Positions 6,690 through 39,731 of a DNA stretch of 64,000 nucleotides are shown here, piece after piece. The notes under the pieces were generated by a model. The model searched no databases. It was not told the origin of the DNA and saw only the letters and a program-made list of their open reading frames with translations. This DNA comes from an uncultured Verrucomicrobiae bacterium (GTDB taxonomy: Bacteria; Verrucomicrobiota; Verrucomicrobiia; Limisphaerales; Palsa-1400). Numbering within the stretch: the first letter of the stretch is position 1; each line of letters starts with the position of its first letter. Both the position numbers and the translations under genes were made by a program. The stretch is taken from positions 2,528,001 through 2,592,000 of the forward strand of contig OY969763.1 in assembly GCA_963702845.1 (NCBI GenBank), in the 5' to 3' direction.

Positions 6690-9044
6690 GTGACAACCAA
6701 CGCAGCTTGGCGTAGCACGTTCAAAAACTGGCTTCCCGCCGTTGTCATTTTCGTCGCGGTAATCGTCGCTTTCTGGCCCGCTTATTCCGGTGGATTCATT
6801 TGGGACGACGACGCCATGTTGACTGGTAATCCTCTCATCCGTGGTCCATTGCGAACCTATTGGTTTACCACACAACCGGTGGATTATTTCCCTCTGACCT
6901 ACACAAGCTTGTGGTTGGAATGGCGGATATGGGGGATGAATCCAATGGGCTACCACGTCACTAACGTTGTGTTGCACGCATTCAGTTGCATCTTCCTGTG
7001 GCGCGCGTTTGTGCGTCTAAACTTTCCTTCAGCATGGTTGGCTGCCCTCCTGTTTGCGCTCCACCCCGTGACCGTCGAGTCCGTCGCCTGGATCGCGGAA
7101 CGCAAAAACGTCCTCGCGATGTTTTTTTACAGTTTAACGGTTTGGTCATTCATCCGCTTTGCGCAATCCGGCAAGCGAACGTTCTATATCTTGTCACTCT
7201 CCGCGTTTTTACTGTCTTTGCTCGCCAAAACAGCAGCGGCAGCCTGGCCGATAGTTGCATTTGCTATTGGATGGTGGATCTTGCGAAACTCCGAATTCTC
7301 CAAACGGAATCATTCATCGCGACTGAACCGATTTACCAAATGTACCGTTTGGAGTTTGCCGTTCCTGATCGTAGCCATATCCCTAAGTGTTGCTACTGTG
7401 TGGTTCCAATATAACCGGGCAATCGGCGATGACACCATCCATCATCACGATTTCTTCACGCGCTTTGCGGCGGCTGGAACTGCGGTCTGGTTCTACATCG
7501 GCAAAGCAATAGTTCCCTATCCAGTCATGTTTTTCTATCCGATGTGGAATATAAACTCCCATTCGCTGATATCCTTTGTTCCCGCGATAGCCCTACTGGC
7601 GCTGTTTGTTATCTTATGGATGTTTCGCGACCGCTGGAGCAGCCCATATTTTTTTGCGCTCGGCTACTTTGTTCTCCTCTTGGCGCCCATCCTTGGATTT
7701 TTCAACATTTATTTTCAACGTTACTCCTACGTCGCCGATCACTGGCAGTACTTCGCGTTGCCGGCCATTACAATCATGATCGCGGCTGGACTGAATAAAT
7801 TCAAACTACACTATATAATCGGCGCCGGATTGGCTCTGGCGTTCGCGTTTCTTACTTTTAACCAGAGTCGAGTGTATCGTGATCCCCAAACGTTGTGGGC
7901 CGATACTTACCGCAAAAACCCTCACAGTTGGGTGGCGCTTAATTACCTTGCACTCAATAAGGAATTGACTGGCCGGGTTGACGAAGCGATTCAACTATAT
8001 ACCCACTCGCTGCAGCTTAATCCCGAGCAGTCCGAATCCCACACCGGCTTAGGCAAGTCCTTTTGTATGCTTGGAAAAACCAATGAGGCAATGGAACAAT
8101 ACGAAGAGGCGATCAGAATCAATCCCCATCACGCGATACCGTATTGCAATCTGGCCGGAATCTTTCAAAACCAGGGCAAAGCAGATGAAGCTATCCATCA
8201 ATATCGTGAGGCCATCCGCTTCCAGCCTAATTATGCACCAGCTTACAATTCCCTCGGCCGACTCTTGTACATGCAAGGACGATACGACGAAGGCATGGCC
8301 CAATTGCGCCATGCGCTCGCGATTGATCCAGAGTTCCCTCCGGCCCTCATCAATCTCGGCGTTTTCCTTACCGACCAAAATCAGGCCCATCAAGCAGTTT
8401 CCTTCTGTCAACAAGCCGTTACGTTATACCCTGACGACGCGGATGCCCACGCCGCTCTTGGCAATGCGCTGTTCCACCTGAAACAAAGTTCCGCAGCGCA
8501 GGATCAATTCATGGCCGCGCTAAAACTTAACCCATTACAGGATCTCGCCCGCTACGGACAAGCCAATTGCCTTAGACTTTCTGGACGGACTAACGAAGCC
8601 GCCAAACTTTACGAACAAGTTATCGCGCAAAACCCGCAACATGCCGAGTCCCATTACCAGTTGGCGATGCTCCTTGCCGCAAACAAACAAAAAGCCGCAG
8701 CAGTAGAACATCTCCGAGAAGCTGTGCGTCTAAATCCCGGACGGCTCGAAGCTATCAATAACTTAGCGTGGTTTCTAGCCACTGATGCAAATTCAACACC
8801 AACCGACATCGCCACCGCCATTCGATTTGCTGAGCAAGCGGTCGAAGACTCCGCGGGTCGTAATGCAGTTGCTTTAGACACGCTTGCCGTAGCTTGGGCT
8901 CGTAATGAAATTTTCACCAAAGCCTCCGACACGGCCCGACTCGCCCTGCAGTTGGCCGAGAGAACAGCCCAAACCAATCTCGCAGTTGATATTCAAAAAA
9001 GGATCGATTTGTATGCCAAACGCACGGCTTATATCGAGCCATGA
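6690..9044 (+). CDS. TMTC-like GT-C membrane glycosyltransferase with C-terminal TPR array (paralog 1)
   Basis: GFIWDDD acidic loop after TM1, YFPLT, GYHVTNVVLH, HPVTVESVAWIAERK, VADHWQY, many TM segments, then TPRs (e.g. AYNSLGRLLY). Probable GTG start at 6690 (ORF open from 6627). Confidence 0.88.
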   Translation: MTTNAAWRSTFKNWLPAVVIFVAVIVAFWPAYSGGFIWDDDAMLTGNPLIRGPLRTYWFTTQPVDYFPLTYTSLWLEWRIWGMNPMGYHVTNVVLHAFSCIFLWRAFVRLNFPSAWLAALLFALHPVTVESVAWIAERKNVLAMFFYSLTVWSFIRFAQSGKRTFYILSLSAFLLSLLAKTAAAAWPIVAFAIGWWILRNSEFSKRNHSSRLNRFTKCTVWSLPFLIVAISLSVATVWFQYNRAIGDDTIHHHDFFTRFAAAGTAVWFYIGKAIVPYPVMFFYPMWNINSHSLISFVPAIALLALFVILWMFRDRWSSPYFFALGYFVLLLAPILGFFNIYFQRYSYVADHWQYFALPAITIMIAAGLNKFKLHYIIGAGLALAFAFLTFNQSRVYRDPQTLWADTYRKNPHSWVALNYLALNKELTGRVDEAIQLYTHSLQLNPEQSESHTGLGKSFCMLGKTNEAMEQYEEAIRINPHHAIPYCNLAGIFQNQGKADEAIHQYREAIRFQPNYAPAYNSLGRLLYMQGRYDEGMAQLRHALAIDPEFPPALINLGVFLTDQNQAHQAVSFCQQAVTLYPDDADAHAALGNALFHLKQSSAAQDQFMAALKLNPLQDLARYGQANCLRLSGRTNEAAKLYEQVIAQNPQHAESHYQLAMLLAANKQKAAAVEHLREAVRLNPGRLEAINNLAWFLATDANSTPTDIATAIRFAEQAVEDSAGRNAVALDTLAVAWARNEIFTKASDTARLALQLAERTAQTNLAVDIQKRIDLYAKRTAYIEP
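8308..8511 (+). repeat. 204-bp near-identical repeat, copy 1 (TPR region of paralog 1)
   Basis: 8 mismatches against 10717-10920; the last 91 bp are identical. Confidence 0.9.
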
Positions 9045-9093
9045 TTTGAAATACATTTCGACTCCCACATCCTGAGCGCACCAAACGATCAAA

Positions 9094-11450
9094 ATGTCCC
9101 TGGACGCTAAAGTCGCATTTCAAAAACGTTGTAGGCTCTGGAGCCCACCGCTTTTAATTCTTGTGGCGGTCGTCGTTGCTTTCTCGCCTGTTTTTTCTGC
9201 TGGGTTTATATGGGACGACGACATCATGCTGACCCGCAACCCGCTGATTAGCGGGCCTTTGCACGCATTTTGGCTTTCAGCAAAGCCAGTGGACTATTTC
9301 CCTCTTACTTATACAACGCTATGGATCGAATGGCGCCTTTGGGGGATGAATCCGCTCGGCTATCACATTACAAATGTGTTGTTGCACGCGCTCAGTTGCG
9401 TAATTTTATGGCGCTCATTTGTCCAACTAAATTTTCCTGCTGCATGGTTGGCTGCACTCCTGTTCGCGGTCCATCCGGTGAACGTGGAATCTGTTGCCTG
9501 GATTGCCGAACGCAAAAACGTCCTCGCAATGCTGTTTTATAGTTTGACCGCCTGGTCGTTCGTTTGCTTTGTGCGGTCGCGCAACCACCGTTTTTATGTG
9601 CTCTCCATCGCTGCTTTTATCTTATCGCTGCTGGCAAAACCTGCCGCAGCGGCATGGCCGCTAATTGCTTTCGCCACCGGCTGGTGGATTTGTACGCATA
9701 GCAACAACCGAGCTGACAATCGAGGTTCCCAAACCAATCTCGAAATTCTTCGAAAGTGTTGCCGATGGGTAATCCCATTTTTTCTAAGTGCCGCGATAAT
9801 TGCTCCAGTTACGATTTGGTTCCAATCTCACAATTCAATGGGGGGGAAGTCAATTATCCAGACCTTCTGACGCGGGTAGCTGCTGGTGGCCGCGCTTTTT
9901 GGTTCTACCTCGGCAAGGCCGTCTTGCCGCACTCGCTGACAATCCTATACCCGACCTGGGCAATAGACCCGCATTCACCCGTGTCGTACGTCCCCTGGCT
10001 CGGCTTCATTGCGCTGTTCTGTATACTGGCTAAGTTTCGCAACAACTGGACAAGACCTCTGCTGCTCGGCCTTGCTTATTACTTCCTGTTGCTGTTACCG
10101 GTGCTCGGATTCTTTGCCATGTCTTACCAGCGTTTCTTGTACGTAACCGACAGATGGCAATATTTCGCATTACCTGCGGTTACCGTCCTGATTGCGCTCG
10201 GCCTGTATAAATCCAAACTCACCTATCTGGGGCTTGTGCTCGCGATCCTGTTCAGCGCGCTGACTTTTACTCAATGTCGTCTATATCACGATGTCGAAAC
10301 CCTCTGTGCGGATGTCTTAAACAAAAACCCAAATTCTGAACTCGCCCTCAGTTTCTTGGGTTATTATCGACAAACAGCCGGCCATCCAGAAGACGCCATC
10401 AAGCTCTATAGCCGCGCTCTCGAACTGAATCCCAACGAAACAGACCTTCACATTAATCTCGGTAACGCCTTGCTAACGGTGGGCCGTAGTGACGATGCAA
10501 TTCAGCAATATCGTGCTGCGATCAGCATTGATAATCATCACGCACCACCGCATTGCAGTCTGGGAAGCATCTTTGAAAAGCAGGGCAAGGTGAATGATGC
10601 CTTAGCTGAATACCGTGCAGCTATTCAGTGGCAGCCGAACTATGCGCCAGCGTATAATGCGCTCGGACGGTTGTTGTACTTGCAAGGAAATCAGAATGAA
10701 GGTATTGCTCAACTGAGCCATGCGCTCGCCATCGATCCAGAGTTTCCCCCGGCCCTCATCAATCTCGGCGTTTTCCTTACCGACCAGAATCAGGCCGATC
10801 AAGCAGTTTCCTTCTGTCAAAAAGCCGTCACGTTATACCCTGACGACGCGGATGCCCACGCCGCTCTTGGCAATGCGCTGTTCCACCTGAAACAAAGTTC
10901 CGCAGCGCAGGATCAATTCACCGTCGCACTCAAACTCAATCCATCACAAGATCTGGCCCTCTATGGGCAAGCCAACTGCCTCAGCCTTTCCGGCCAAAAT
11001 TCGGAGGCCGCCAAACTCTACGAACAGATCCTCATCCAGAATCCTGACCACGCCGAATCACATTTCCGACTCGCCATGCTTCTAGTCGCAAATAAACAAA
11101 AAGATCCGGCCATAGCGCACCTTCGTGACGCCGTTCGTCTCAAGCCCGACTGGATCGAAGCGATCAATAATCTTGCCTGGTTTCTGGCCACCGACCGTAA
11201 ATCTAACGCTGCCGATTGTGCCAAGGCGGTACGCCTTGCCGAACGCGCCGTCGAACTTTCCGGCGGCCGCAATGCAGGTGCTTTCGACACACTCGGGGCA
11301 GCATGGGCGCGCAATGAAGTGTTTACCAAAGCAATTGACGCGGCGCGTCGAGCGATGGAAGTAGCGACTCAAACCGGCCAAAGCAATCTTGCCACCGATA
11401 TTCAAAATCGCATCGCTCTGTATAACAAACACAGTGCTTATAGTGAGTGA
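9094..11450 (+). CDS. TMTC-like GT-C glycosyltransferase-TPR protein (paralog 2), frameshifted at G7 tract 9840-9846
   Basis: ORFs 9094..9870 and 9756..11450 together are colinear with paralog 1 over the full length. Adding one G to the run joins them (HNSMGGEVNYPDLLTR). Confidence 0.85.
10717..10920 (+). repeat. 204-bp near-identical repeat, copy 2 (TPR region of paralog 2)
   Basis: Direct alignment with 8308-8511. Confidence 0.9.
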
Positions 11451-11569
11451 GCGGGGCTGTGTCGCGTGGGTCTGAGTAGCAATAATAGCTACAGCGGCAT
11501 CGGATAAAGGCGCAGGTGTATTCCGTGTAAGTACGGACGCATTTTGCCTGATTTCTCTTAGGATTTTGT

Positions 11570-11599
11570 TTGACGGGGTCTCCCCTACTTTTATAGGCT
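11570..11599 (+). promoter_or_regulatory. Possible sigma70-type promoter for giant surface protein A
   Basis: TTGACG at 11570-11575, followed by TATAGG after 16 nt or TAGGCT after 18 nt. Confidence 0.35.
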
Positions 11600-11703
11600 A
11601 ACCCAGTAATCACCGAGATTAGGGACCGCCTGTTCCGCATTGTCAGGCGTTCCTGTCAATAAAAAAACCAGTTATAAACAGTTAGTAACTCCGTTCCGTC
11701 GCT

Positions 11704-14700
11704 ATGAAAACAAACTTCGTCCGCCGATTATTGCCTATGGCGTTTATCGCAGCCTTTGGCCTGCGCGCCTCTGCCGCAGTATTAAATTTTGACCCCGATA
11801 CCACCGGGGCCGGTAATGATTGTTCGACTGGAGCTGGCCTCGGCGGCGGCGGAACCTGGGACGCGGTAACAGCACAGTGGGCTGATTCCGCCAACTGCAC
11901 GACTGATATTCCATGGGTCAGCGGCAGCGACGTGGTATTCTGGCCGGGCACGGGCACGACGATTACTGCAGGCAGCGCATTTACCGTAAGTAACATCACG
12001 TTCCAAGCCTCCGGTCTAACGCTGTCAGGAGCGTCCGGCCTGACTTTGTCTGGAACACCGACGCTGACCGCAAACAGCGGCTTGGCGACCATCAACGCTT
12101 CCATTGCTGGCACTGGTGGTTACAACGTTGGCGGCACAGGCAGGATGAAGCTCGGCAACAACCCCAATCTCGTATCTGGTCCAATTTCGATTGGAACCGG
12201 CAGCACGCTCGAGCTTGTAACCGGTGCTTCGATGGCCAGTTCGGGTTCTGTAACAATTAATGGTGGGACACTCAGAAACGATGACGACGGCTCGCAAAAC
12301 GGTTTAGTTTTCTACCCGAACGGTTATTCAGGTAACATCCTCCTGGATGCAGTGAACGGGGGCACGATTGCCATGGGTGGAACAACGGTAAGCTTGTCTG
12401 CCCCCCTCTCAGGCCTCCTGCAGTGGCCCAATGGAGGTAATTGCCAAATCCAAGGTGGACCTTTAACCGTATCTTCGCCTAACAACGGCAAACAGACGTT
12501 GCGCATGCAAACCGTCAATACCTTTTCTAAACTGATTATTGTCGGTCCGGCTTGCTACCAGATCACTACCTCGGGAACTAACGATACTGGCGCATGTGGT
12601 GCCATCCCGGCGAGTTTTACATCCGATGCGATTCTGATGCAAAACAACGCCGTGTTGCAGGCTAACGACCCGATTTTCAGTGCCAAACTCCAAGTCACCT
12701 CAATTCACACCAATCGCGGAATCACGTTGGGAACTGCTCCTGGCGACAATTGCTATTTTACGGGCGCCACGGTTAACTCCTCCGCGACGCAGGACTTTTG
12801 GCTGAACAGTCAAATTTCTGGTCCTGGTAACCTCAATCTCGGTTATACCAATGCGACCACTGCCACTTCCTATTTCAATGAGCCCATTATCGCTGCCTCA
12901 GGCGTCAATATTCACTTGAACCATGTCAATACTTATACCGGCAATACCATTGTCAATTGCTCGTTCAACGAGGTCGAGGTCGCAGGCGGGCTTCCGAACA
13001 ATCCAGTATACTGGCCTGGAACTAAAAGTGACCACACTTTCCAGGGATTGCTCATTAATGCGAATACAACCGTTCCTTCCATTACGTTGACTAATGGCGC
13101 GAACAGCGGCTATCGCCTCACCCTTAATAGCGCTGCCGCTACGTTTACCCTTAATCAGAATGTAAATACTGGTTTTGGTGGTAACATTGGCGGCGCAGGC
13201 CACTTCATCAAACAAGGATCGGGTAACCTTACCAACTTATATACAGTAGCTAGTTGGGGTGCCACAGGACACTTCGAGATCAATGGCGGTTCAATTGTGA
13301 ATGGTAGCGCTGCATCAGGTCTCCCCAACCTTAGCCTTATCGATATCGGTGCCGCTGGTACTATGGACATGAACAACTTCAGTGACACGATCGGTGGTTT
13401 GAACGGCGCTGGTAATGTAATTAATGCTACCAACCTGTTTTTGATCGGTATGAACAACAACAGCGGTGCTACCACGACCACTAACTTCAGCGGCAACATC
13501 AGTGCTGGCCCCGGCGGCAATTGCGTGCTGAATATCCAGAATCTTCCTGGCACTAGCTCGCTCATTCAGACCCTCAGCGGATCGAACAATTTTAGCTCGG
13601 TTTTCATGTTTGGCGCGCCTGCTACCTTGATCGTGGGCAGTAATAATGCTGTCGGCCAAGGTACGATCCTTGTATCAAACACCCCAGTACTCAGTAGTGT
13701 CGGCAACATCACGCTTGGCAATAACTTCATCATCACCAACGGAGGGGGTACTAATTTTCAGTTGACAGCCATGGGGGGCACCGGCGGTTCGTTGACTCTC
13801 AATGGTGTGATCAGCGGTCCTGGTAGCCTCAAAACTACCAGCGGCGGCTCGCTTACCCTTACTGCAAACAATACCTTCGCGACCGGCGTAAGTAACGCTG
13901 CGGGCGTGCTCAACATCAGTCACGCCCATGCCTTGGGGACCGGCACCTACACCCCGTTGGGCGGAATTCTGGAAAATACCGCTGGCACCGATCTTATCGT
14001 GACCAACGCAGTTACTGTTCAAAGCGGCGGTGTTCTTTATGGCGGCACGAATAACAATCTAACCTTTAGCCAGCCAGTCAACCTCAACGCCGCGAGCCGA
14101 AATACCACTGTTTTCGGCCACACCTGGACATGGGCGGCTGGAGCAACCAGCTCCGGCGGCGCAATTAACAAGTTGGCCGGCCTCGGCACGCTCGCCCTCG
14201 GCGGCACATCAACATTCAACGGCGCCCTCACAGTTAGCGCTGGGACCCTACAGATTGACGGCAACGTATCGACAAGTTCGGGAACAACGGTGAACAGTGG
14301 CGGCACGCTTGTTGGCTCCGGCACCGTTTCTACCGTCACGGTTAACACCGGCGGCACGATTTCAGCCGGCTCTACTGGAGTTGGCGCTCTGGCCACAACC
14401 GCCCAAACATGGAACGGCGGCTCCACAAACGTATGGGACTTCTCTGATGCAGCTGGCGTGGCAGGTACCGGCTACGATACATTCAACATGAGTGGTGCGT
14501 TAACAATCGGTGCGACGCCCGCAAGTCCGATGACACTCAAAATCACTGGCACGCCCGCCAACTTCCCTGGCAGCGGCAGTTGGACTATTGCTACCGCATC
14601 GGCAGTTAGCGGCTTTGACTATCGTTCGATTACCATCGACACGACTGGTCTTACGGCCTCACTCGACCCGAACAAAGCCTTCCGCGTTACCCAATCTGGC

Positions 14701-17700
14701 AACAACCTCGTGCTGACTTATTCCGACCCGGCGATTACGGTTGATCCAGTGAACATCATTGTCAGCCATACATCGAACGCTGTTTTCAATGTCACCGCGA
14801 CTGGCGCATCGCTCAGCTATCAATGGCAGAAAAACGGCATCAACATCAGCGGCGGAAACATCACTGGCGCCACTACCAGCAGCCTCACCGTCGGGAATAT
14901 TTCCGACAGCGACCTTGCTTCCTATAGCGTTGTCGTTACCGACTCCACCATCCCAGCCAGTGTCACCAGCGCCAGCGCTACCTTGGACATCGCTGACGCA
15001 CCGGTGATCACGATTCAACCGGCTTCCCAGACAGTCGGGATCAATACCAACGCTCAGTTCATCGTCACCTGGAACGGATCAGCCGATGATATCGCTAAGG
15101 GCTACACCAAATTCCAATGGAGAACAAATGGGGTGAATTTAGCGAACACCGCTCGCTACGCTGGGGTTACTACCACCAACATGACGGTTGTCGCAGCGCA
15201 GCTTACCAATGCGGCAAGTTACACCGTCGTTCTCTCGAACTTGTTCGGAATGGCCACCAACACTGCTGCCATCCTTGGAGTTGATACCATCCCGACCATA
15301 TCACTCCAGCCGGTCGGCCACATCATCTCACCTTATGGTGGATGGACGAATGAGATCGTCACGGCCGCTGGCGGAGACCTCAGTTATCATTGGTGGTATA
15401 CCAACACTGTGAGCACAAATTTGGTGGTCGAGGATGCGACCAACTACATTGGGGCAACGACTGCAAACCTGATTATCACCAATGCCGTGGATACGAATTC
15501 CGGTGGCTATTTTGTGATCATTACAAACTACGCTGGGTCTATAACCAGCGCGGTTGCAGTAGTCAGCATCCCAGTTGAGCCGGTCATTGCTTCAAGTCCG
15601 ACCAACCGCTCTGCAGTTACAGGTCAGACGACAATCTTCACCGCGATCGCTTCCGGTAAACCAAACCTGTTCTATCACTGGAAGAAAGACGGTGTAAATC
15701 TCGTTGACGATGGCCTCCACATCACCGGCGCTCATACGGCGAGTTTGACTTTGGCCAACCTCACGACGGCTGATACTGCAATCACGCCTGGATATTTGCT
15801 TGAAGTCACCAACGACTTCGACGCATTCACTGCCAACACGATTGCGGCAACATTGACGGTCTTTGATCCTATCACAATCAGTGCCACCCTTGCCGATGGG
15901 ACACCCGGCGCTCGGTACTTATATTAGTAGCAATGCGATTACCCTGACAGCTCCTTTGACGGCTGGTACTGGTCCTTTCACATATCATTGGAAAAAGGGC
16001 GCAGCCAATGTCAGCAACGGAGGCACCATCTCAGGTGCTGCAACCGACACCCTGAGCATCTCCAGTGCGGCGTTGACAGACGCTGGCAGCTATTCGCTCG
16101 CTGTCACCAACTTTGCCGGCGCCACCACCAGCGCTCCGGTTGTTATTACTATTAATCAAGGGGTCGCAATAACATCTCAACCCTCTTCCATAACTGTTGA
16201 CGTTCCTGGCCACACTGCCAAATTTACGGTTGTAGCAACTGGTAATCCTTTGGCGTATCAATGGTACTTCAACAGCAACGCCATCGCTGGAGCGACCAGC
16301 GCTTCTTACACGAATACGAGCGTCAGTTCAGCAGACATCGGTTACTATTATGTTGTGGTAGGCAACACGAACAACACTGTAAAAAGCTCGGTGGTGACGT
16401 TGAAGATCGGTCAATTCTTCTTCTTTGATGCTCTGACCAACAGTACCTCCGCCGCAAACTGGAACGTCTTCACGAACAAGAGCGACTCGACCACCAACTG
16501 GGCGTTCGATTACACGTTGCATGACGACAATTCTGGACCTGGTATTCCGCAGAATACGAATTCCACCTCACCGACGGCCTTGCAGCTAACCATTAACAGC
16601 TCCGGCACTAACAACGGCGCGTCCATAACGCTCGTTCCCAAGACCATCAATGCCACTGGCGATTACCAGTTCAGCTTCGATGTGTTCATGAACTTCTTGG
16701 GAGGCGCGGGCACTCCTGGATCTCAAACCGCGCAAAGCATGACCGCAGCTCTCGGTTGCGTTGCTAACATCACAAACGGAATAAGCGGATTTAGTAACGG
16801 TGTCGTAGCATTTGCTAACTGCGACAACGCCCTTTCCGCGGATGACTATGCGATGTATGCAAACTCAAGTGCCGGCAGTGGCTCAGCCAAAGTTTCTCTT
16901 AGCGACTTGGTTGCTGGCAGTGGTTATCACATTAATTCCTACTATGCCTTCGTCAGCGCTAGTAACACCGTCACATTCCCGACCAATGAAGTGCTATCAA
17001 CGCTCGACGGAGCGGCTAGCCAATCCAGGCCCCTTCCGTACGACGTAGGCACATTCGGATTGGCTTGGCATCACGTCCTGATCCAGCGCTCCGGTACCGG
17101 CACAGGCACCACAACCGTGACCTATTACATCGACGGCAAACCAATTGGCACTGTGACCAACGCATTCTTCGGCAATAGTGGCAACGCAATCGACATTGGT
17201 CTGTGGGCTACCTTCGCTGGCGGCGGCTCAACCAACTGGGAATTTACGCTCTTCAACAACGTTAAAGTTGAAAGCTTCCCTGGCGCAGGTGTCGCTCCGA
17301 CAATCACCACGCCGGTCGCCGATTTGACTGCAAATGCAGGATCGGCGGCGATCCTCAGTGTCACTGCGGGGACCAGCCCGACGACATTGCGTTATCAATG
17401 GGCCAAAGGTGGTGTCAACCTCAGTAACGGTGGCAACATCTCTGGCGCGACCAGTTCGGCGCTGACTATCAGCGGTGTGCTGGCAACGAACGCAGGTTCA
17501 TACAGCGTCACTGTGCTTAACGACTCCGACTTCGTCAGCGGTGGTTCGGGAATTCTGACGGTCATCGACCCGGCTATCACTGCTCAACCGACGAATACAA
17601 CCGTCGAATGCAGCTCGGATGCTGTCCTGAGCGTTACTGCAGCTGGAACCGGAACTCTCACCTACCAATGGTTTACGCCCGATGCTAACGGTACGGCAGT

Positions 17701-19525: not shown

Positions 19526-19541
19526 TTAACGACTAATTCAC

Positions 19542-19575
19542 AAGGCGTCCCGCAAAAGCGGGACGCCTTTTTTGT
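19542..19575 (+). terminator. Rho-independent terminator after protein A
   Basis: Perfect 12-bp stem aaggcgtcccgc-aaaa-gcgggacgcctt followed by a T tract. It lies between convergent genes. Confidence 0.9.
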
Positions 19576-19580
19576 TTTTA

Positions 19581-30612: not shown

Positions 30613-33431
30613 GTCCAACCAAATACTCTAGGGAAGAGTGGCTATGCGGCGTTCTGTTGATTGCGGCCGCGATGATGGTTTATATGCCTGCGCTGATGGG
30701 TGGATTCGTATGGGACGACGAGGTAAGTCTTACCGAAAATCCCCTGATCAAGTCTGCGCACGGGCTCATAGACATTTGGTTCAGTCGCAAACCGTTTGAC
30801 TATTTTCCACTGACTCTAAGCTCCTTCTGGCTTGAGTGGCGAATATTCGGACTACATCCGTTCGGATATCATGCGGTCAACTTAATGTTGCACGTCACCA
30901 GCGCTCTTATTCTATGGCGGCTGCTTCGCTATTTAAAAATCCCCGGAGCGTACGTGGCGGCGTTTTTGTTTGCCGTGCACCCTTTATGTGTTGCGTCTGC
31001 CGGATGGATTGCAGAACGAAAGAATACGCTGGCCATGCCGTTTTATTTACTAAGCGTGCTTTGGTATTTGCGATCGAGTGGGGAGGAGTTTCGGGCTCGT
31101 CGGCGTCGATTCTACGTCCTGTCGCTTTGCTGTTTTCTTCTGGCGTTGCTCAGTAAGACATCAGTCGTAACGTTACCGCTAATTCTGCTGGTGCTAGAAT
31201 GGTGGCGGAAGGGCCGACAGGTTGAGACGGAGAATCCAGCGCGAAAGACGACCATAACCGGCATTCTCGTGCGGACCGCCCCGTTTTTTCTGCTATCACT
31301 TGTGTTAGGACTGCTGACGATTTGGTTTCAGTGGCACCGCGCAATGGGTGGTACCGTTGTACAAACCGAAAACATTTGGGAGCGCTGCGCAGCGGCAGGA
31401 TGGGCGATCTGGTTCTATCTTTTCAAAACCATAGTTCCTTTGGGATTGACGTTACTGTATCCGCATCACGATTTCACCGGGGGTTCATTTGTTATCTACT
31501 TTCCGGCCGTGGCCCTGGTCGTGATTTTGGTAATTTTGTGGAAAAAACGCGCGCGCTGGGGCCGTCATTGGTTTGCCGCGCTAGCGTATTTCATACTCGC
31601 CTTGCTGCCAGTGCTCGGGTTCGTTGACATGTATTTCCTCGTCTACGCCCGGGTGGCGGACCATTGGAGTTACGTGGCGTTGCCAGGAATCCTGGCTTTA
31701 GTTGTTGGGGTCGCAAACGCGGGGATTCAAAAGTTCGTCAACTGGATGCGCGAAGCTAGGGCACCTGTTTTTTCCCGTGAAAGCATCAATCTTTATGCTG
31801 CGCTTGTCAGCCTGGGTGTCTGTTGTGTTTTGGCACGAGACAGGGCAGTTGTATTTGGGAGCGAAGAATTGGTCTGGAGGGACGTCTTAAAAAAGAATCC
31901 GCAGTGTTGGGCTGCGCATAATAATTTGGCGCGAGACTTTCTGAATCGCGGCGTAAGACCCCAGGAAACTGAGATTCATTTTCGCGAGGCGTTGCGATTG
32001 AGGTCCGAGTTTCCTGAGGCGTATAACAATCTTGGGATGCTGTTCTTACGTGAGGGCGACATTGATTTAGGCATTGCTTACTATAGGAAGGCTCTTGCTT
32101 TAGAATCGAACTACGTACTTGCACATAATAATCTCGGGGTCGCTCTTATGAAAATGGGGGACTTCAACGAGGCGATTTCACACCTGCGCAAGGCGATCGA
32201 ATTGGAGCCAGATATACCGACTGGCTACCGCAATATGGCGCAGTGCTATCTGATGAAAGGCGATCTCGATAGTGCATTCAACGAAATCAAAAAGGTTTTA
32301 CCGTTCAATCCCGGTGATGCATCGGTCTATTTCTTTGGAGGGAATTGTCTCTACCTCCAACATCATGTGAAAGAAGCTATCGATTGGTATCAGAAGGCTC
32401 TACGGATTAAGCCTGCTGACGTCGATGGACAATACAACATGGCTATCGCCTGGGTTGAGTCAGGGGATATCGCGCAAGCGCATGTTTACTATGCGAAAAC
32501 TCTGCGCCTTGATCCCGATTACGCGCGTATCATCGTTGAACGGGGGCGAGCATTGGTTAACAAGGACGACTTGAAGGGAGCACTGGACCATTTTCGACGC
32601 GCCTCGGAACTGGATTCGAGTAATGCCGATTATCGAGTTGGGACCGGATACGTGTTAAGCAAAATGGGGAAGAGTAACGAAGCAGAACGGGAATTTAACG
32701 AGGTGACGATCTCGAGCAAGAAAGATCCAAGTGCATTATTCAAACTGGGATCGGTTTTCCTTTTGCTGGATGAACCCGCTAGGGCGATTCCAGTGCTGCA
32801 GCAGGCGGTTTCGCTTGATGTTGGTTCTGCCGACTATCGTGTTAAGCTGGGAATTGCTTTGCTCATGCTTAATCGAGACGGGGAAGCGAAGCAATGCTTC
32901 GAACAAGCGCTCGCTTTAAGTCCAAACCATGCGGATGCACATTATCGGCTTGGAAACGTTCTTCTGAAACATCACGCCCTGGATCTCGCGAAGGTGCAAT
33001 ATGAAGCGGCCCTTAAGGTAAACCCGTCATTTGCTGATCCTCATTTTCAGATCGCTCGAATGCTGGAGATGAAAAACGAGTATCCAGCCGCAATTCAAGA
33101 ACTGACGGTGGCGATTGAATTACGTCCGAATTGGACAGAAGCTCTAAACAATTTGGCTTGGGTATTGGCGACCCATCCGGACTTCAGCTTGCGCAATGGT
33201 GTTGAGGCCGTCCGCTACGCAACACGGGCCATCAATTCTGCAAAGATGAAGGACGCCGACCAACTTGATACGTTGGCCGCTGCGTATGCTGAAGCCGGAC
33301 AATTCAAAGAGGCGGAGATGGCTGCCGAAGAAGCCGTTAAACTTGCCACGGTGGCGCGACGCAATGAGCTAGTGGATTCGATCGAGAAGCGCCTCGCCCT
33401 ATACAAAGCAGGCAAACCGTTCCGTGACTAA
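30603..33431 (+). CDS. TMTC-like GT-C glycosyltransferase with long TPR array (paralog 4)
   Basis: GFVWDDE, YFPLT, HPLCVASAGWIAERKN, VADHWSY, then many TPRs and the same C-terminal cap as paralogs 1 and 2 (ALNNLAWVLAT...LDTLAAAYA). Its start overlaps the end of the upstream gene. Confidence 0.9.
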   Translation: MRISPTKYSREEWLCGVLLIAAAMMVYMPALMGGFVWDDEVSLTENPLIKSAHGLIDIWFSRKPFDYFPLTLSSFWLEWRIFGLHPFGYHAVNLMLHVTSALILWRLLRYLKIPGAYVAAFLFAVHPLCVASAGWIAERKNTLAMPFYLLSVLWYLRSSGEEFRARRRRFYVLSLCCFLLALLSKTSVVTLPLILLVLEWWRKGRQVETENPARKTTITGILVRTAPFFLLSLVLGLLTIWFQWHRAMGGTVVQTENIWERCAAAGWAIWFYLFKTIVPLGLTLLYPHHDFTGGSFVIYFPAVALVVILVILWKKRARWGRHWFAALAYFILALLPVLGFVDMYFLVYARVADHWSYVALPGILALVVGVANAGIQKFVNWMREARAPVFSRESINLYAALVSLGVCCVLARDRAVVFGSEELVWRDVLKKNPQCWAAHNNLARDFLNRGVRPQETEIHFREALRLRSEFPEAYNNLGMLFLREGDIDLGIAYYRKALALESNYVLAHNNLGVALMKMGDFNEAISHLRKAIELEPDIPTGYRNMAQCYLMKGDLDSAFNEIKKVLPFNPGDASVYFFGGNCLYLQHHVKEAIDWYQKALRIKPADVDGQYNMAIAWVESGDIAQAHVYYAKTLRLDPDYARIIVERGRALVNKDDLKGALDHFRRASELDSSNADYRVGTGYVLSKMGKSNEAEREFNEVTISSKKDPSALFKLGSVFLLLDEPARAIPVLQQAVSLDVGSADYRVKLGIALLMLNRDGEAKQCFEQALALSPNHADAHYRLGNVLLKHHALDLAKVQYEAALKVNPSFADPHFQIARMLEMKNEYPAAIQELTVAIELRPNWTEALNNLAWVLATHPDFSLRNGVEAVRYATRAINSAKMKDADQLDTLAAAYAEAGQFKEAEMAAEEAVKLATVARRNELVDSIEKRLALYKAGKPFRD

Positions 33432-33490: not shown

Positions 33491-33520
33491 TTGACAGTTA
33501 GACCAAACTCCGGTGAGATG
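33491..33520 (+). promoter_or_regulatory. Possible promoter for giant surface protein B
   Basis: Perfect TTGACA at 33491-33496; the -10 element is weak (TGAGAT at 17 nt). Confidence 0.25.
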
Positions 33521-33677
33521 GTCGGTAAGTTCACCGAATACCTAACCCAAAAACCCATGTGTCTTAAGGCAGCTTTTTCTAAAGGCTTCGCCGTCTTAGT
33601 TTGACGGCACCTCTTGTTCACTAACCCAATCCTCGACACCCAATCAGATTCCGCATAAGCATAAACCCATCAGCCGT

Positions 33678-36600
33678 ATGAAAAAAACCCACTTAATACA
33701 TGTTCTAAGCATAGCGTCCTTGGTTATGGGATTGCTTCCACTCCGCGCAGCGCAGCAATGGGACCCTAACGGCGCAACTGCTGGTTGTTCCTCCACTGTC
33801 GGCGTGTGGGATACTACCACCGCCAATTGGAGCACGGCCTGTGATGCGGGCGGTAACGTCGCTTGGACTGCCGGTGGAGACGCAGTTTTCTCTACGTCAG
33901 CTGCTTATTCCGTAACCGTAACTGCACCTGTTAGTGTTCATAACATTACAGTTAACCGTGTATCTCCAGGCGCCGTGTCGATCGTAGGAACGAGTGCGAT
34001 GACATTTACTGCCGGGGCGACAGTTAACATCGATGGTGCCGGAATCGCCGTCTTCACCGCGCCTTATGCGGCGGCATCCAGCTCTGTTACTCTGACAAAG
34101 ACCGGCACCGGGACGCTTTCCCTGAATAACTCAGTAAACACTTACGGCGGTAAATGGGCCTGCACAGCCGGTCGCCTCAGCGCGGCGACTGATCTTTTCT
34201 TTGGACCCGCTCCCGCCGGCGTGACCCCAGATTTCATTACTCTGGACTCGGGCGGCGGTTTGAGGACGACAAGTGTCGGCTTGAACCTCAACGTGAATAA
34301 AGGAATAACCTTAGGGTCGGGTGGCGGCGCTCTCGAAGTAAGTGCCACTTTTCAATCAATCAACAGCAAAATCACTGGCCCTGGGGCCCTTTCAATTACT
34401 GGCGCTGCTGCAGCAGTGCCGGTTGTTCTACTTAACACTGGTAATGATTATGCGGGCGCTACAACGATTGCAGCGAGCAGTTTGCTCAAACTCGGCGCGT
34501 CGGGCGTTATACCTGATACATCTGTGGTTACTCTCGCTGCTGCCGGTGCGACGCTGGACTTGAACGGGCAGAGTGAGACGGTCAAATCTCTGTCAGGAAC
34601 TGCTGGCGTCGTTCTGTGCAATGGTGGCACATTGACAATCGCTAATCCCAACGGAGAATCTTATACCTCAACCGTTAACATCGGGAGCGGCACCGGAACC
34701 ATCATCATGAACGACGGTGGTGTGGGTAATGGCAAGTTTACGTTTGGCCCTTCGACGGCAACATACTCTGGCGGATTTACCTTAAATAGTGGAAAACTCG
34801 CCATTTCAGCCAATCCGGCTTTTGGAGTAGGGACATTGACAATTAATGGTGGCACCCTTTGTGCCGCGAGTGCGACTGGTCGGGCACCAACTCCGGCAGC
34901 GGTAACTTTCGCGGGTAATCTAACATCAGACGACACATTTGTTACTCCGACTCCAGGAACGATCACTTGGGGTGCGACAATTCCCTGGACCATCAATGGC
35001 GGCAACCGAACCTATACAATCAATACTGCTGCAAACAACGGCTACACTATCGCGATTAACGGTGTAATTGGTCAGGACGTGGCAGGTCGCAGTTTGACTA
35101 AAGCTGGCAACGGCGTCCTCACTCTCGGTGGCGCGAACACTTACACGGGTGGAACAATCATCAGTGCGGGAACTGTCAACGTGAGTTCGACCGGCAGCAT
35201 TAAGGGATCTGTCACCATCGGCAGCAGCGGCATCTTGAAGCTTACGACTACGACAACCGGACTTGAGACTTCCGCCAACGTTACAAATGCTACCTCGCCC
35301 GCTGCCAGTTCCATTAACCTCGCCTTCACCGGAACGCAAACGATCAACAGTTTGACTTTCGGAACTGCGGTGAAAGCACCCGGAACGTGGGGGTCAACAA
35401 CCTCGAGCGCAACGCACAAGAATACCTCCTTCACTGGAACGGGTATCCTGAGCGTCACAACCGGCGGCACTTCAACCACCAGCATCAGTTCTGATGGATC
35501 ACCTTCCTCCTACGGTAACCCTGTCTTGTTTACAGTAACAGTGACCGGAACAGGTAACGGTTCTACGCCGGTCGGCAACGTCACTATTCTGGATAATGGA
35601 ACTCCAATCGCTACGCCAACACTTAGCGGCAGCGGCAATGTCTCTACGGCAACGTTCTCGACCAGTTCACTGAGCGCAGGAACACATGCAAACATCACCG
35701 CTACGTGGGCTGGTGATGATAATTACGATTTGAGCAGTTCTAGTGTCCTCTCTCAAACGGTCGATCCTCGCCCTGTAACACTTGCGGGCACACGAGGTTA
35801 CGATGGTACTACTGATGCGGCAGCTGCTATACTTACCGTCGGCAACAAGGTCGGCGTTGACGATGTCAGCGTTGCTTCCGGCACGGCGACACTTGCCAGC
35901 GCTGATCAAGGTTCCCGAGCCATCACGTCGTTGGGTTCCTTGGTATTAGGCGGAGCTAACTCCGGTAACTACACCCTTTCGGGCGCGAGCGGCTCGGTAA
36001 CTGTCAACGCTACCGCTCTATCGATTACAGCGACAAACCAAACCAAGGCGAAGGGCAATACACTGTTGTTCAACGGAACGGAATTTACATCTTCCGGCCT
36101 GATTAGTCCTGAAACAATTGGCTCTGTTACCATAACCAGTGCAGGCGCTGATTCGGGCGCTGATGCTGGCACCTATTCGATTGTCCCAAGCGCTGCGACC
36201 GGAGGTACATTCAACCCGGCTAACTACGACATCACTTATCACAACGGCACATTGACCGTGACTGATCCCGCGGCAATCACCAGCAGCCCGTCCAGCAGCA
36301 CCGTCGATGCCGGTGCCAACGTAGTCCTTACTGTCACCGCATCCGGATCCCCTACGCCAACCTATCAATGGAAGAGAGGCGCAAACAATTTGTCCAATGG
36401 CGCTAAGGACAATGCGGCAACTGTCACTGGTGCAACGACTGCCAGTCTCACATTATCGGGTGCTCGGGCGGCTGATGGTGCCGCTTATACTTGTGTGGCA
36501 ACCAACTCAGCAGGCAGCGACACAAGTTCCGCTGCGACACTGACCGTCAATGACCCGGTCATCACGCAACAGCCGGTGAACTCCACCTTCGAATGCTCCT

Positions 36601-39600
36601 CGAGCAACGCCCTTACCGTAACCGCTATTGGCACGACCAACGCGAACGGTCTTCTGACCTATCAATGGTATACGCCCGATCCGAGTGGCACAGCCATTAC
36701 GGATGCGACCAATTCCGTCCTGTCCTTCCCGACGGTTTCCTTCCTTAACGCAGGCAGCTATTCAGTGGTCGTGAGCAACGCGCTCGGCAACTTCATCACC
36801 AGCTCTGTTGTCGTCGTGACCATTGAAGACACCAACGCCCCTGTGATTAGCGTTATCGTCGGCGCGGCCACGGCTGAGTGCCACACCTCCTACAGCGATG
36901 CCGGCGCAACCGCGACCGACAGCTGCGACGGTTCTGTCAGTGTCAGCACGACTGGTTTGCCGAACGTGAATGCCACGGGCAATTACACCATCACCTATAC
37001 GGCGCAGGACGCGTCGGGTAACAGTTCCACCGCCACTCGCGTGGTGACCGTGGTTGATGGCACCGCCCCGGTGGTTACGCTCAATGGCGCTGCTTCCGTG
37101 ACACTTGAGTGCCACGGCTCATTCAGTGACCCAGGCGCGAGCGCCTCGGATACCTGCGATGCCAGCGTCACCGTCTCCACCAGCGGCGTATTAGACGCGA
37201 ACACACCTGGTGTTTACACCCTGACCTACAACTCGACGGATCTTTCCAGCAACACCGGCACCGCGACCCGCACTGTTACCGTCTCTGATAACGCCGCTCC
37301 TGTGGTGACCTTGACTGGCGCAGCGAGCGTCACAGTGGAATGTCACAGCAGCTATACCGAAGCGGGTGCAACGGCCAATGATGCCTGCGAAGGTTCCGTC
37401 AGCGTGAACACGACTGGTTCAGTTGATGCGAACACTGTTGGTAACTACACCTTGACCTACGGAGCTTGCGACTCCGGCAGCCATTGCGCGGCAACCACTC
37501 GTATCGTCCACGTCATTGACACCGCCGCCCCTTTGGTGACGATCAACGGCACCTCGCCGATGACGGTGGAATGCCATGGCAGCTTCAGCGATCCTGGTGC
37601 GACATCGGCTGATGATTGCGATGCCGGTCCGAGCGTCGTGACCAGCGGCAGCGTCAATGCGAACGCGGTGGGTTTCTACACCTTGACCTATAGCTCGACA
37701 GATGCCGCCAACAACACCGGCAGCGCGACCCGCGTGGTTCACGTCACTGATACGGTTGCTCCTGTCATCACCGTCACCGGCGGCGATCAAACCGTGGAAT
37801 GCCACGACACCTTCACCGATGCCGGCTCAACCGCGGCGGACGCCTGCGAAGGCGACGTGAGCGCCAACATTGCTGTTAGCGGCAGCGTCGATGCTAACAC
37901 CGTTGGTGTCTACACCTTGACCTACAGCGTGGCCGATGGCAGCGGCAACCCCGCCTCCGCCACCCGCACCGTCACCGTCAATGACACGGTTCCTCCTGTG
38001 ATTACCGTCACCGGGGGCACCACGGTCAGCGCCTGCCAATTCGTCGCGTATAACGATGCCGGTGCGACAGCAAATGACGTCTGCACAGGCAGCGTCAGCG
38101 TGAGCAGCAGCGGCAGCGTCGACACCAGCACCGCTGGTGCCTACACCTTGACCTACAGCGCCCAGGACACGACCGGCAATACCGCCACGGCCACCCGCGT
38201 GGTCACCGTTGGTCCTTGCAACGCGGTTATCACCCAGCAACCGCATGACACCAACGTCAATGCGAACGCTTCGTTCACCTTGAGCGTGACAGCCGTTTCG
38301 GGCAACCCGATCACCTATCAGTGGAAGACCAATGGCGTTGCCATCAGTGGGGCGACCGACTCGAGCTACACTGTGGCCCATGCCTTCCGTGGCAATGCCG
38401 GCACCTACACGGTTGACGTGATCAGTGGCGTGACGACCATCACCAGCGACCCTGCAGTAGTGACCGTCCAGGATCCTGCCTTCACCATCAACCCGATATC
38501 GCAGACCTTGGCGGTTGGAGTGAATACGAACCTGAGCCTGGTGGCCGTTGCGGATGGCACCCCGACGCTGAGGTATCAATGGTACGTCAAGACTGCCCTC
38601 CACACCAATAAACTGGTCACCACCACCAATCTGACGATCAAACCGTTGGCCCTTGGTTCAGCGGGCACCTACTTCTGCGTGGTGAGCAACGCCGGCCATG
38701 GCATTACCGCTACCAGCTCCATGGCTACCATTGCAGTCTATCAAGCGCCGAAGGTTTCGACCCCGGCCAACCAGACAAAGTTCGTTGGTCAGAACGCGAT
38801 CTTCAAAGTGGCGGTTAGTCCGGCCACTGCGAACAATCCTCTCTATGGTGGCCCGGTCCACTATCAATGGGTTCAAGGGCCGCCCGACAACTACACTGTG
38901 TTGATTGATAACGGCCATTACGCCGGCACGACCACCACGACCATGACGATCGTGAACGTGCAGACCGGCGATGCGTCGGTTGCTCATACCCCGACGGGCT
39001 ATCGTTGTATGGTCAACAACGGGGCTCCGACGAACGTGTTTAGCGCCTTCGGTGCTGGGTTGACCGTCAGACAATACACCAACCCCCCTGTGGTTGTGAT
39101 CAATCCCACCGGCACTGGCCTTGTCACCAGCTCGAACATGAACATAGCTGGAACAGTAACCGACAAAGGCCTGGTCACGGACGTCTCGCTCAAGCAGATC
39201 ACCGTTGATGCCACCAACACGCTGCCCTCGGACATCACCTACAAGACCAACGCCGCGCATCAACAAATGCCTGGCAATGTCCTGTGGACCAACGCCGTCA
39301 CCTTGACCCCCGGCACGAATGCATTCACAGCCACGGCTGTTGACGGCGAAGGCAACACCGGCACGAACAAGCCAGTGCGCAACATCTACCTCCTCGTGCC
39401 GCAGGCACTGACCCTGGCCACCAACGGCCCCGGCACCATTCAGATCACCTCGCTGGGTGTCCTTGGTAAACCGCTCATCGGAACGACCAACGTCTACCAG
39501 GGCATTGGTTACACCCTCAAGGCCCTGCCCAAAGTCGGCGTCCACACCTTCCTTGGTTGGACCGACGGTGACAACAACGCCTATTACGGCACCGGCCCGA

Positions 39601-39671
39601 TCATCATCACCAACACCCTGCACTTCATCATGCCGGGAACAAACCTGACCCTCCGCGCCAACTTTAACTAA
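33678..39671 (+). CDS. Giant secreted surface protein B (1997 aa): beta-helix passenger-like region, Big_3-like, YDG-like and MBG-like domains, Ig repeats, six DUF5011/HYR-like repeats, C-terminal Ig plus InlB-B-like module
   Basis: Sec signal, LTKAGNGVLTLGGANTYTGGTIISAGTV repeats, RGYDGTT, NYDITYHNGTLTV, Ig QP...YQW units and six DTxAP...ECH...DxC...YTLTY...ATRxVxV units. Confidence 0.9.
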   Translation: MKKTHLIHVLSIASLVMGLLPLRAAQQWDPNGATAGCSSTVGVWDTTTANWSTACDAGGNVAWTAGGDAVFSTSAAYSVTVTAPVSVHNITVNRVSPGAVSIVGTSAMTFTAGATVNIDGAGIAVFTAPYAAASSSVTLTKTGTGTLSLNNSVNTYGGKWACTAGRLSAATDLFFGPAPAGVTPDFITLDSGGGLRTTSVGLNLNVNKGITLGSGGGALEVSATFQSINSKITGPGALSITGAAAAVPVVLLNTGNDYAGATTIAASSLLKLGASGVIPDTSVVTLAAAGATLDLNGQSETVKSLSGTAGVVLCNGGTLTIANPNGESYTSTVNIGSGTGTIIMNDGGVGNGKFTFGPSTATYSGGFTLNSGKLAISANPAFGVGTLTINGGTLCAASATGRAPTPAAVTFAGNLTSDDTFVTPTPGTITWGATIPWTINGGNRTYTINTAANNGYTIAINGVIGQDVAGRSLTKAGNGVLTLGGANTYTGGTIISAGTVNVSSTGSIKGSVTIGSSGILKLTTTTTGLETSANVTNATSPAASSINLAFTGTQTINSLTFGTAVKAPGTWGSTTSSATHKNTSFTGTGILSVTTGGTSTTSISSDGSPSSYGNPVLFTVTVTGTGNGSTPVGNVTILDNGTPIATPTLSGSGNVSTATFSTSSLSAGTHANITATWAGDDNYDLSSSSVLSQTVDPRPVTLAGTRGYDGTTDAAAAILTVGNKVGVDDVSVASGTATLASADQGSRAITSLGSLVLGGANSGNYTLSGASGSVTVNATALSITATNQTKAKGNTLLFNGTEFTSSGLISPETIGSVTITSAGADSGADAGTYSIVPSAATGGTFNPANYDITYHNGTLTVTDPAAITSSPSSSTVDAGANVVLTVTASGSPTPTYQWKRGANNLSNGAKDNAATVTGATTASLTLSGARAADGAAYTCVATNSAGSDTSSAATLTVNDPVITQQPVNSTFECSSSNALTVTAIGTTNANGLLTYQWYTPDPSGTAITDATNSVLSFPTVSFLNAGSYSVVVSNALGNFITSSVVVVTIEDTNAPVISVIVGAATAECHTSYSDAGATATDSCDGSVSVSTTGLPNVNATGNYTITYTAQDASGNSSTATRVVTVVDGTAPVVTLNGAASVTLECHGSFSDPGASASDTCDASVTVSTSGVLDANTPGVYTLTYNSTDLSSNTGTATRTVTVSDNAAPVVTLTGAASVTVECHSSYTEAGATANDACEGSVSVNTTGSVDANTVGNYTLTYGACDSGSHCAATTRIVHVIDTAAPLVTINGTSPMTVECHGSFSDPGATSADDCDAGPSVVTSGSVNANAVGFYTLTYSSTDAANNTGSATRVVHVTDTVAPVITVTGGDQTVECHDTFTDAGSTAADACEGDVSANIAVSGSVDANTVGVYTLTYSVADGSGNPASATRTVTVNDTVPPVITVTGGTTVSACQFVAYNDAGATANDVCTGSVSVSSSGSVDTSTAGAYTLTYSAQDTTGNTATATRVVTVGPCNAVITQQPHDTNVNANASFTLSVTAVSGNPITYQWKTNGVAISGATDSSYTVAHAFRGNAGTYTVDVISGVTTITSDPAVVTVQDPAFTINPISQTLAVGVNTNLSLVAVADGTPTLRYQWYVKTALHTNKLVTTTNLTIKPLALGSAGTYFCVVSNAGHGITATSSMATIAVYQAPKVSTPANQTKFVGQNAIFKVAVSPATANNPLYGGPVHYQWVQGPPDNYTVLIDNGHYAGTTTTTMTIVNVQTGDASVAHTPTGYRCMVNNGAPTNVFSAFGAGLTVRQYTNPPVVVINPTGTGLVTSSNMNIAGTVTDKGLVTDVSLKQITVDATNTLPSDITYKTNAAHQQMPGNVLWTNAVTLTPGTNAFTATAVDGEGNTGTNKPVRNIYLLVPQALTLATNGPGTIQITSLGVLGKPLIGTTNVYQGIGYTLKALPKVGVHTFLGWTDGDNNAYYGTGPIIITNTLHFIMPGTNLTLRANFN
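36828..38220 (+). repeat. Six tandem ~77-codon DUF5011/HYR-like coding repeats in protein B
   Basis: Visible in the protein and the DNA (recurring tacaccttgacctac). Confidence 0.85.
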
Positions 39672-39696
39672 CGCGCGAAGATAAATCGCTAAACTC

Positions 39697-39731
39697 AAAG
39701 CGCCCTCGACCATTTCGAGGGCGCTTTTTTG
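39697..39731 (+). terminator. Rho-independent terminator after protein B
   Basis: aaagcgccctcga-ccatt-tcgagggcgcttt followed by Ts. Confidence 0.9.

Follow-up and report, generated by a model that had tools for sequence, protein, structure and literature searches.

What do tandem membrane glycosyltransferases do when a giant, Ser/Thr-rich surface protein is encoded directly behind them, and is that protein their substrate? The question is raised by a 64,000-nt stretch (the window; positions 2528001-2592000 of contig C1) of a 6.03-Mb single-contig genome, labelled G000 here, whose affiliation to the Limisphaerales (Verrucomicrobiota) is suggested by the names on its closest protein homologs. 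The initial annotation of this DNA described a same-strand order of glycosyltransferase (GT), GT, giant protein and terminator as occurring twice in the window, and its coordinates and gene order were right; it went on to propose that each enzyme pair serves the giant next to it, as a bacterial parallel to the O-mannosylation of cadherins by animal TMTC enzymes. We find that the association between these enzymes, which couple a GT-C membrane domain to a tetratricopeptide repeat (TPR) array, and giants with immunoglobulin (Ig)-like repeats is statistically strong but confined to this genome among the genomes examined. Our reading, held tentatively and a little short of an even chance, is that GT-C enzymes with TPR arms glycosylate Ser and Thr residues of exported proteins, and that the downstream giant is likely to be one substrate.

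All genes of both modules lie on the forward strand. Module 1 (6627-19579) opens with GT1a (6627..9044; 805 residues, intact), in which a GT-C membrane domain of 11 transmembrane (TM) helices at residues 1-420 is followed by the TPR array. Its true start is uncertain, being either a TTG at 6627 or position 6690, the start given in the initial annotation; the database gene call (P0002, 742 residues) starts at 6816 and so cuts off TM1 and the WDDD motif. GT1b (9094..11450) has the same GT-C/TPR make-up, is read as 9094-9870 plus 9756-11450 across a frame break, and is the nearest in-window paralog of GT1a, with 59-60% identity in the N-terminal half. Giant A (11704..19525), a PATR/Ig-repeat protein, is likewise read in two pieces, 11704-15927 and 15863-19525, and is followed by an intrinsic-terminator-like element (19542..19579) made up of a hairpin at 19542-19569, with a 12-bp stem containing nine G-C pairs, and a T-rich tail. 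In module 2, the GT-C/TPR paralog GT2a (~28637..30612, with a frame break) precedes GT2b (30603..33431; 942 residues, intact), which has a GT-C domain and a long TPR array, and giant B (33678..39671; 1997 residues, intact), which carries PATR, Big_3_5, YDG, I-set/Ig_3 and six Bact_surface_Ig-like domains. Past giant B lies a second terminator-like hairpin (39700..39731), GCGCCCTCGA-loop-TCGAGGGCGC followed by T6, with a fold z-score of -4.46. The description of each module as a pure TMTC-like pair plus a giant holds for gene order and terminators but not for the stretch 26210-28640, which is a third, YfhO-like GT-C gene.

The three motifs that had been ascribed to all four enzymes, F[IV]WDD[DE], HP[VL].V.S.[AG]WIAE.KN and [AT]D[HR]W[QS]Y, are indeed retained in each. 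The first outer loop reads FIWDDD in GT1a, GT1b and GT2a and FVWDDE in GT2b; the HP motif reads HPVTVESVAWIAERKN in GT1a, HPVNVESVAWIAERKN in GT1b, HPVCVASVAWIAEQKN in GT2a and HPLCVASAGWIAERKN in GT2b; and the DHW motif is ADHWQY in GT1a and GT2a, TDRWQY in GT1b and ADHWSY in GT2b. WDDD or WDDE occupies residues 59-62, in the TM1-TM2 loop, of all four proteins, and across 36-42 homologs the motifs are invariant or nearly so, with D61, H146, P147 and K160 among the invariant positions. At their C-termini, the TPR repeats score strongly (TPR_1/TPR_2 at E 1e-33 to 1e-58).

An AlphaFold2 model of GT1a residues 1-440 was obtained with a mean predicted local distance difference test score (pLDDT) of 87.5 and a predicted template-modelling score (pTM) of 0.88. 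The leading Foldseek matches to this model are the GT-C enzymes STT3, Pmt4, ArnT, AglB and PglB. VIA-align gave Z-scores of 19.6 for yeast STT3 (322 residues, root-mean-square deviation 4.7), 18.8 for Pmt1-Pmt2, 18.6 for AglB, 18.0 for Pmt4 and 16.6 for ArnT, with a range of 16.4-19.6 over 307-353 residues for these enzymes as a group. Z reached at least 8 in 54 of 1000 chains, and the best 50 of these 54 were GT-C-type enzymes or the look-alike PIG-U of the glycosylphosphatidylinositol (GPI) transamidase. GT-C enzymes are marked by an acidic signature in their first outer loop, and by both fold and this motif the proteins belong to the GT-C superfamily. The model has 11 membrane helices (DSSP and hydropathy) and a long TM7-TM8 loop containing a helix at 276-295; because the helix count is odd, the three motifs and the TPR array are predicted to face the periplasm.

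A Pfam hmmscan of the membrane domains of GT1a, GT2a (N-terminal domain) and GT2b returned no match even at E<=10, and an NCBIfam scan returned only TPR families below threshold. Searches of PDB sequences recovered no solved GT-C enzyme at E<=10, a point that weighs against our reading: the N-domain profile had no matches, a single protein gave one chance match at E 0.69 and the full-length profile found TPR proteins only.

How close, then, are these enzymes to TMTC? Animal TMTC1-4 (CAZy GT105) are protein O-mannosyltransferases of the endoplasmic reticulum that act on cadherins and protocadherins and depend on dolichyl-phosphate mannose. The claim that the enzymes are TMTC-like GT-C proteins stood in part: the GT-C fold, the TMTC architecture and a profile link to a DUF1736 protein support it, but the DUF1736 hidden Markov model (HMM) goes unmatched. 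TMTC_DUF1736 (PF08409) found nothing at E<=1, neither genome-wide nor in any of 36 family N-domains, which counts against a TMTC-type assignment, and across Verrucomicrobiota it was found in one protein, in 1 of 201 genomes. That bacterial protein (L117:811-2463; 550 residues, PF08409 at 42 bits against a cut-off of 27, plus TPRs) served as a yardstick, and TMTC homology was judged through it rather than through animal TMTC sequences. In hhalign, the N-domain profile aligned to it with 97.9% probability (E 3.3e-13); the 253 aligned columns start at TM1 and extend as far as the DUF1736 region, with the DD and FAxHP..E motifs in register; two generic PMT_2 proteins of the genome, run as controls, reached 19% and 0.3%. 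A solved TMTC chain is absent from the Foldseek and VIA-align matches listed for the GT1a model, and the fold comparison covers other GT-C enzymes. A eukaryote DUF1736 cluster appears at rank 17 in the ESM Atlas (score 0.93), which is a lead only, and 5 of the 120 homologs listed carry the JGI label 'protein O-mannosyl-transferase'. Because the DUF1736 HMM is negative and yet profile and architecture match the TMTC type, we place the enzymes in the PMT-type GT-C clan as a family sister to TMTC, alike in architecture but outside the family proper by the DUF1736 test.

Passages on TMTC topology in the literature describe 11 TM helices for TMTC1-4, with DUF1736 corresponding to a TM7-TM8 loop that includes a small non-membrane helix (PMC7801869). 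The present enzymes share with those descriptions the 11-TM GT-C domain, the long TM7-TM8 loop with its short helix and a C-terminal TPR array placed on the non-cytoplasmic side, and their FAxHP..E motif resembles 'LLFAVHPIHT' of TMTC3 (PMC7801869). The candidate substrates in this genome are, moreover, beta-sandwich repeat adhesins. They differ from TMTC in acting, presumably, in the bacterial periplasm with a polyprenyl instead of a dolichyl carrier, and in their number, this genome having 27 paralogs that are frequently arrayed in tandem.

The PMT/POMT enzymes (GT39) and mycobacterial PMT share the GT-C fold (Z 16.9-18.8 to Pmt1-Pmt2 and Pmt4), the first outer loop with its acidic DD/DE motif and Ser/Thr-rich substrates, candidate ones in the present case. 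The Pfam PMT_2 family (PF13231, cut-off 26.1 bits) matches half of the family tested (18 of 36 N-domains; 12 paralogs pass, GT1b among them at 31.3 bits, but GT1a, GT2a and GT2b had no hmmscan match). Unlike them, the present enzymes have TPRs and no MIR domain, and show no sequence match to solved PMTs at E<=10. In structure, the membrane domain scores highest against STT3, PglB and AglB (GT66; Z up to 19.6 over 307-325 residues), but at 9-12% identity and with a periplasmic TPR array in place of the soluble domain of oligosaccharyltransferase. PMT_2 also takes in ArnT-type enzymes, and the structural matches include ArnT, AftB/AftD and EmbB (Z 11.8-16.6). This would fit enzymes that act on a non-protein acceptor, such as lipid A or a cell-wall or surface glycan, in the manner of ArnT, Emb/Aft or O-antigen-type enzymes, with TPRs that dock other envelope machinery. 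We consider such an acceptor improbable: the best fold matches are the protein-glycosylating STT3 and Pmt (Z 17.5-19.6), the profile lies much nearer the TMTC_DUF1736 protein than the two generic PMT_2 proteins, and the TPR arms of OGT and TMTC bind protein substrates.

The enzyme family is very large. Of 8,000 candidate proteins that were scored, more than 5,806 belong to it at E<=1e-5; pattern matches in GTDB species genomes numbered at least 634, of which 619 proved to be members; and the N-domain profile matched 119,619 cluster representatives (50% identity) at E<=0.001, 37,750 of them with E<=1e-30. Five near-complete relatives of G000 have 10-40 match rows each. The literature searched yielded neither a tested substrate for the bacterial GT-C/TPR family nor a characterised prokaryote member, and the main text of a 2025 review of bacterial O-glycosylation mentions neither TPR, GT-C nor mannosyltransferase (PMC12645811). 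The family and its likeness to TMTC are already in print, in the form of a passing mention of TMTC homologues 'even among prokaryotes' (PMC7801869); the new element here is the association with giants within one genome.

Both giants begin, as judged by eye, with signal-peptide-like N-termini and continue into a beta-strand repeat region with PATR and many I-set/Ig_3 matches. Their Ser plus Thr content is 23.5% and 25.7% in the two pieces of giant A and 27.0% in giant B, against a proteome mean of 12.4%, which places them within the top 2% of 3427 open reading frames (ORFs) of this genome. Despite the PATR repeats, a test of both for classical (type V) autotransporters found no barrel family at E<=0.01. 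Altogether 69 ORFs of the genome match giant A or B at E<1e-10 and form what we call the Ig family, a label that denotes BLAST similarity to these two proteins. A C-terminal module of 551 residues in giant A (17870-19522) is present in nine copies with 81-94% identity, in this genome only, against at most 43% in relatives, a distribution that points to recent spread or gene conversion of the module among the giants.

Within this genome, the linkage between enzymes and giants goes well beyond the window. An Ig-family giant is the next non-GT gene downstream, on the same strand, at 6 of 21 GT loci (11 of the 27 paralogs): the two window modules and loci at 1.167, 1.583, 3.20-3.21 and 5.064 Mb. 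Such a giant lies within 1.5 kb at these 6 of 21 loci, as compared with 1.6% of 705 background genes of similar size (binomial P 7e-7). Giants with the A-type module stand at GT loci in five of nine cases, against 5 of 60 for the other Ig-family ORFs (Fisher P 0.002). The GTs of giant-adjacent loci share only 27-60% identity with GT1a and are dispersed on a quick tree of 93 N-domains (11 rows, 10 label changes; 154 of 500 shuffles were as low); given this spread, the arrangement did not arise by the copying of a single block. For the two window modules, whole-module duplication as the source of both clusters is ruled out by the tree of GT N-domains, in which GT1a and GT1b are close paralogs and GT2a and GT2b fall in other sub-clades; giants A and B have only parts in common, so that the modules are not copies of each other.

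The same-strand genes are tightly clustered, with a 50-bp gap between GT1a and GT1b, a 10-nt overlap of GT2b with the end of GT2a, and 254 bp and 247 bp before giants A and B, respectively. No strong terminator was found between GT and giant, the first one lying past the giant in both modules. A blastn comparison of 14 upstream regions revealed no DNA element shared by the GT-adjacent giants.

The most serious competitor to our reading is that these are periplasmic protein GTs of broad specificity, or enzymes with targets encoded elsewhere, and that the giants are no dedicated substrates, their adjacency reflecting co-regulation or the settling of spreading giant genes. Several observations lean this way and weigh against an enzyme-substrate link. 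The initial annotation expected the adjacency to be conserved in relatives, and this expectation failed: an Ig-family gene stands directly downstream of the GT at none of 181 GT loci elsewhere, that is, at 0 of 73 in a GTDB-wide set (76 loci, 73 with a GT ORF), 0 of 39 in a same-family set from 17 genomes (40 loci, picked from the best GT1a matches) and 0 of 69 in a metagenome set (77 loci), although many of these loci are short or at contig ends, where repeat-rich giants often remain unassembled, which biases against seeing the arrangement. Any Ig-family ORF at all occurs in 5 of the 181 (two, two and one per set; L007, L017, L086, L105 and L173), and an ORF of at least 1000 residues follows directly in only three. 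Most commonly, a GT has a further GT as its neighbour, with at least two GT ORFs in 65 of the 181 loci (33, 14 and 18 per set). When 113 GT and 90 Ig match rows from the five near-complete relatives were compared by eye, the two kinds of match lay close together (within ~5 kb) in about three places, namely G014:C15 (giant-GT-giant), G014:C12 (divergent) and G011:C49. In G000 itself, a giant is missing from 15 of the 21 GT loci, and the majority of the 69 Ig-family ORFs lie away from any GT; the gap of ~250 bp before each giant leaves room for a promoter of its own; and the window contains no donor synthase linked to the modules. The last point had been noted before and was borne out, in that the window has no GT2-type synthase; the genome has 26 genes with GT2 domains, one of which adjoins a further GT paralog at 5.349 Mb. 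The enzyme family is, besides, far more widespread than the giants, whose C-terminal module has expanded recently and in this genome alone. Against broad specificity stand the ~18-fold enrichment of strict same-strand, next-gene adjacency among phylogenetically dispersed GTs and the interval between GT and giant that is free of a strong terminator. On balance, we regard broad specificity as somewhat unlikely.

Two same-genus genomes, in 680-800 contigs, never have GT and giant matches on one contig and are uninformative, and the closest relative in the metagenome scan has 58% identity at best. The one clear giant-GT-giant arrangement outside G000, known from match coordinates alone, is that of G014 (C15:5505-16804; another genus), where a 2000-residue Ig-type ORF and a GT-C/TPR gene on the same strand are followed by a 1363-residue Ig-type ORF on the opposite strand. 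A different layout, in which a GT is followed by a convergent ORF of 1099-2923 residues on the opposite strand, was seen at L100/L049, L102, L105, L082 and G000:C1:1792906-1803609 (1247, 1271, 1839, 1099 and 2923 residues); among these ORFs, only that of L105 belongs to the Ig family.

In the mechanism that we propose, the GT-C/TPR enzymes would work at the outer face of the inner membrane, where they would move a sugar from a polyprenyl-phosphate carrier to Ser and Thr residues of exported proteins. The TPR arms, to which the initial annotation ascribed recognition of Ig-like strands, would hold the exported protein as acceptor. Several paralogs in this lineage would be encoded, and probably expressed, together with giant Ser/Thr-rich Ig-repeat surface proteins, the giant directly downstream being a likely target of O-glycosylation. 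We infer catalytic activity, the lipid-linked donor and its sugar, a protein acceptor and its binding by the TPRs, co-transcription, and the giant as target from fold, motifs and gene order. The narrower proposal, in which each diversified TMTC-type GT-C/TPR enzyme is dedicated to the giant encoded behind it, one paralog per substrate, as a bacterial counterpart of cadherin O-mannosylation, seems to us unlikely as it stands; the idea of dedicated pairs, for which the evidence argues weakly, is kept alive because recurrence within the genome is strong. Were it true, a family of over 100,000 uncharacterised bacterial enzyme clusters would gain its first class of substrates, and the six loci with enzymes directly before Ser/Thr-rich giants are concrete candidate enzyme-substrate pairs. 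Confirmation would make TMTC-type glycosylation of beta-sandwich adhesion domains older than eukaryotes; failing that, the modules would be another array of a known, unexplained family.

Three of the module genes are frame-broken as assembled. The break falls on a G7 tract (9841-9847) in GT1b and on a G9 tract (29575-29583) in GT2a; that of giant A, near 15863-15927, involves no homopolymer. One extra G repairs each GT, giving a 791-codon frame for GT1b and a continuous frame for GT2a. The position of both GT breaks exactly on G tracts, each in need of one more G, might suggest slipped-strand phase-variation switches for glycosylation of the giants, with the assembled state 'off' in both modules; G/C tracts of seven or more are rare, at 59 in 6.03 Mb, and only four of them coincide with a repairable break, two of these in the present modules (for A/T tracts of eight or more, the figure is 4 of 174). 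As a control for frame switches, 275 non-GT, non-Ig proteins from the relatives' loci were compared with the genome by tblastn; among the 122 well-matched queries (51,694 aligned residues, 155 kb), 16 had frame switches (two of these on the same gene), 20 in all, or 0.13 per kb. At this rate, ~3.3 breaks are expected in the 25.8 kb of module coding sequence, and three are observed. Breaks also occur in genes with no part in such a switch: a LysA/ornithine-decarboxylase-like gene in the window (46294-47604, forward strand) is split over three frames, with Orn_Arg_deC_N at 46294-47115, a middle piece at 47055-47264 and the C-terminal sheet domain at 47257-47604. Of the 27 GT paralogs, five are broken, and the other three, like giant A, are broken away from homopolymers; the tracts lie, furthermore, at different positions in the GT1b and GT2a proteins. 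Because the genome-wide control rate predicts about as many breaks as are seen, those in GT1b, GT2a and giant A are probably assembly errors and all genes intact; on the strength of the same rate we set phase variation aside as very unlikely.

Module 2 differs from module 1 in its first gene (26210..28643), which encodes a YfhO-like GT-C membrane protein of ~800 residues and is, as assembled, in frame with GT2a. The 1129-residue ORF from 26210 has a YfhO-like, not TMTC-like, GT-C region at residues 24-794; Pfam YfhO (PF09586) matches with 34 bits against a cut-off of 28.5, at profile positions 755-835 only, in the C-terminal part. The YfhO-like residues are 38.7% identical over 788 positions to a stand-alone protein of 789 residues at locus L008, and YfhO-type proteins adjoin GT genes at L028 and L061 also. 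With one G added at the G9 tract, the YfhO-like gene and GT2a become a single frame of 1469 codons, a fusion of two GT-C proteins. Reading the +1 frame, however, gives a TGA at 28641-28643 that overlaps with a potential GTG start codon for GT2a (28637). With a one-base assembly indel just upstream, this would be an ordinary stop/start overlap, and the fusion may thus be an artefact. The gene would bring a YfhO-like GT-C enzyme into module 2 whose distant relatives, the Pgf machinery of Streptococcus mutans, are reported to modify streptococcal adhesins, namely the surface proteins Cnm and WapA (10.1101/2022.10.10.511621; PMC5856776). As in the Pgf system outlined there, the YfhO-like gene is clustered with adhesin-like surface proteins, and it matches the NCBIfam PgfM1 and PgfM2 models faintly (E 0.0025 and 0.0079). 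The matches are, however, limited to the C-terminal 80 residues of the protein, with scores far under the NCBIfam cut-offs, and here the envelope is of Gram-negative type and the YfhO-like gene is joined or adjacent to a TMTC-like enzyme.

Two other ORFs of the window, both on the forward strand, deserve mention. Between the modules, 20427-22454 encodes a 675-residue protein with an N-terminal extension of ~300 residues and a C-terminal Sulfatase domain (E 1e-43), which could be a membrane transferase of the LtaS/EptA type. Downstream of module 2, a 1308-residue ORF (42237-46163) without a match in a Pfam scan has a signal-peptide-like start, an extremely Ala/Glu/Lys/Gln-rich composition and an AT skew of 0.35-0.40, and contains four copies of a motif like 'LAELLRRYRA..TP.EYH.QR', which may be SHOCT-like in look.

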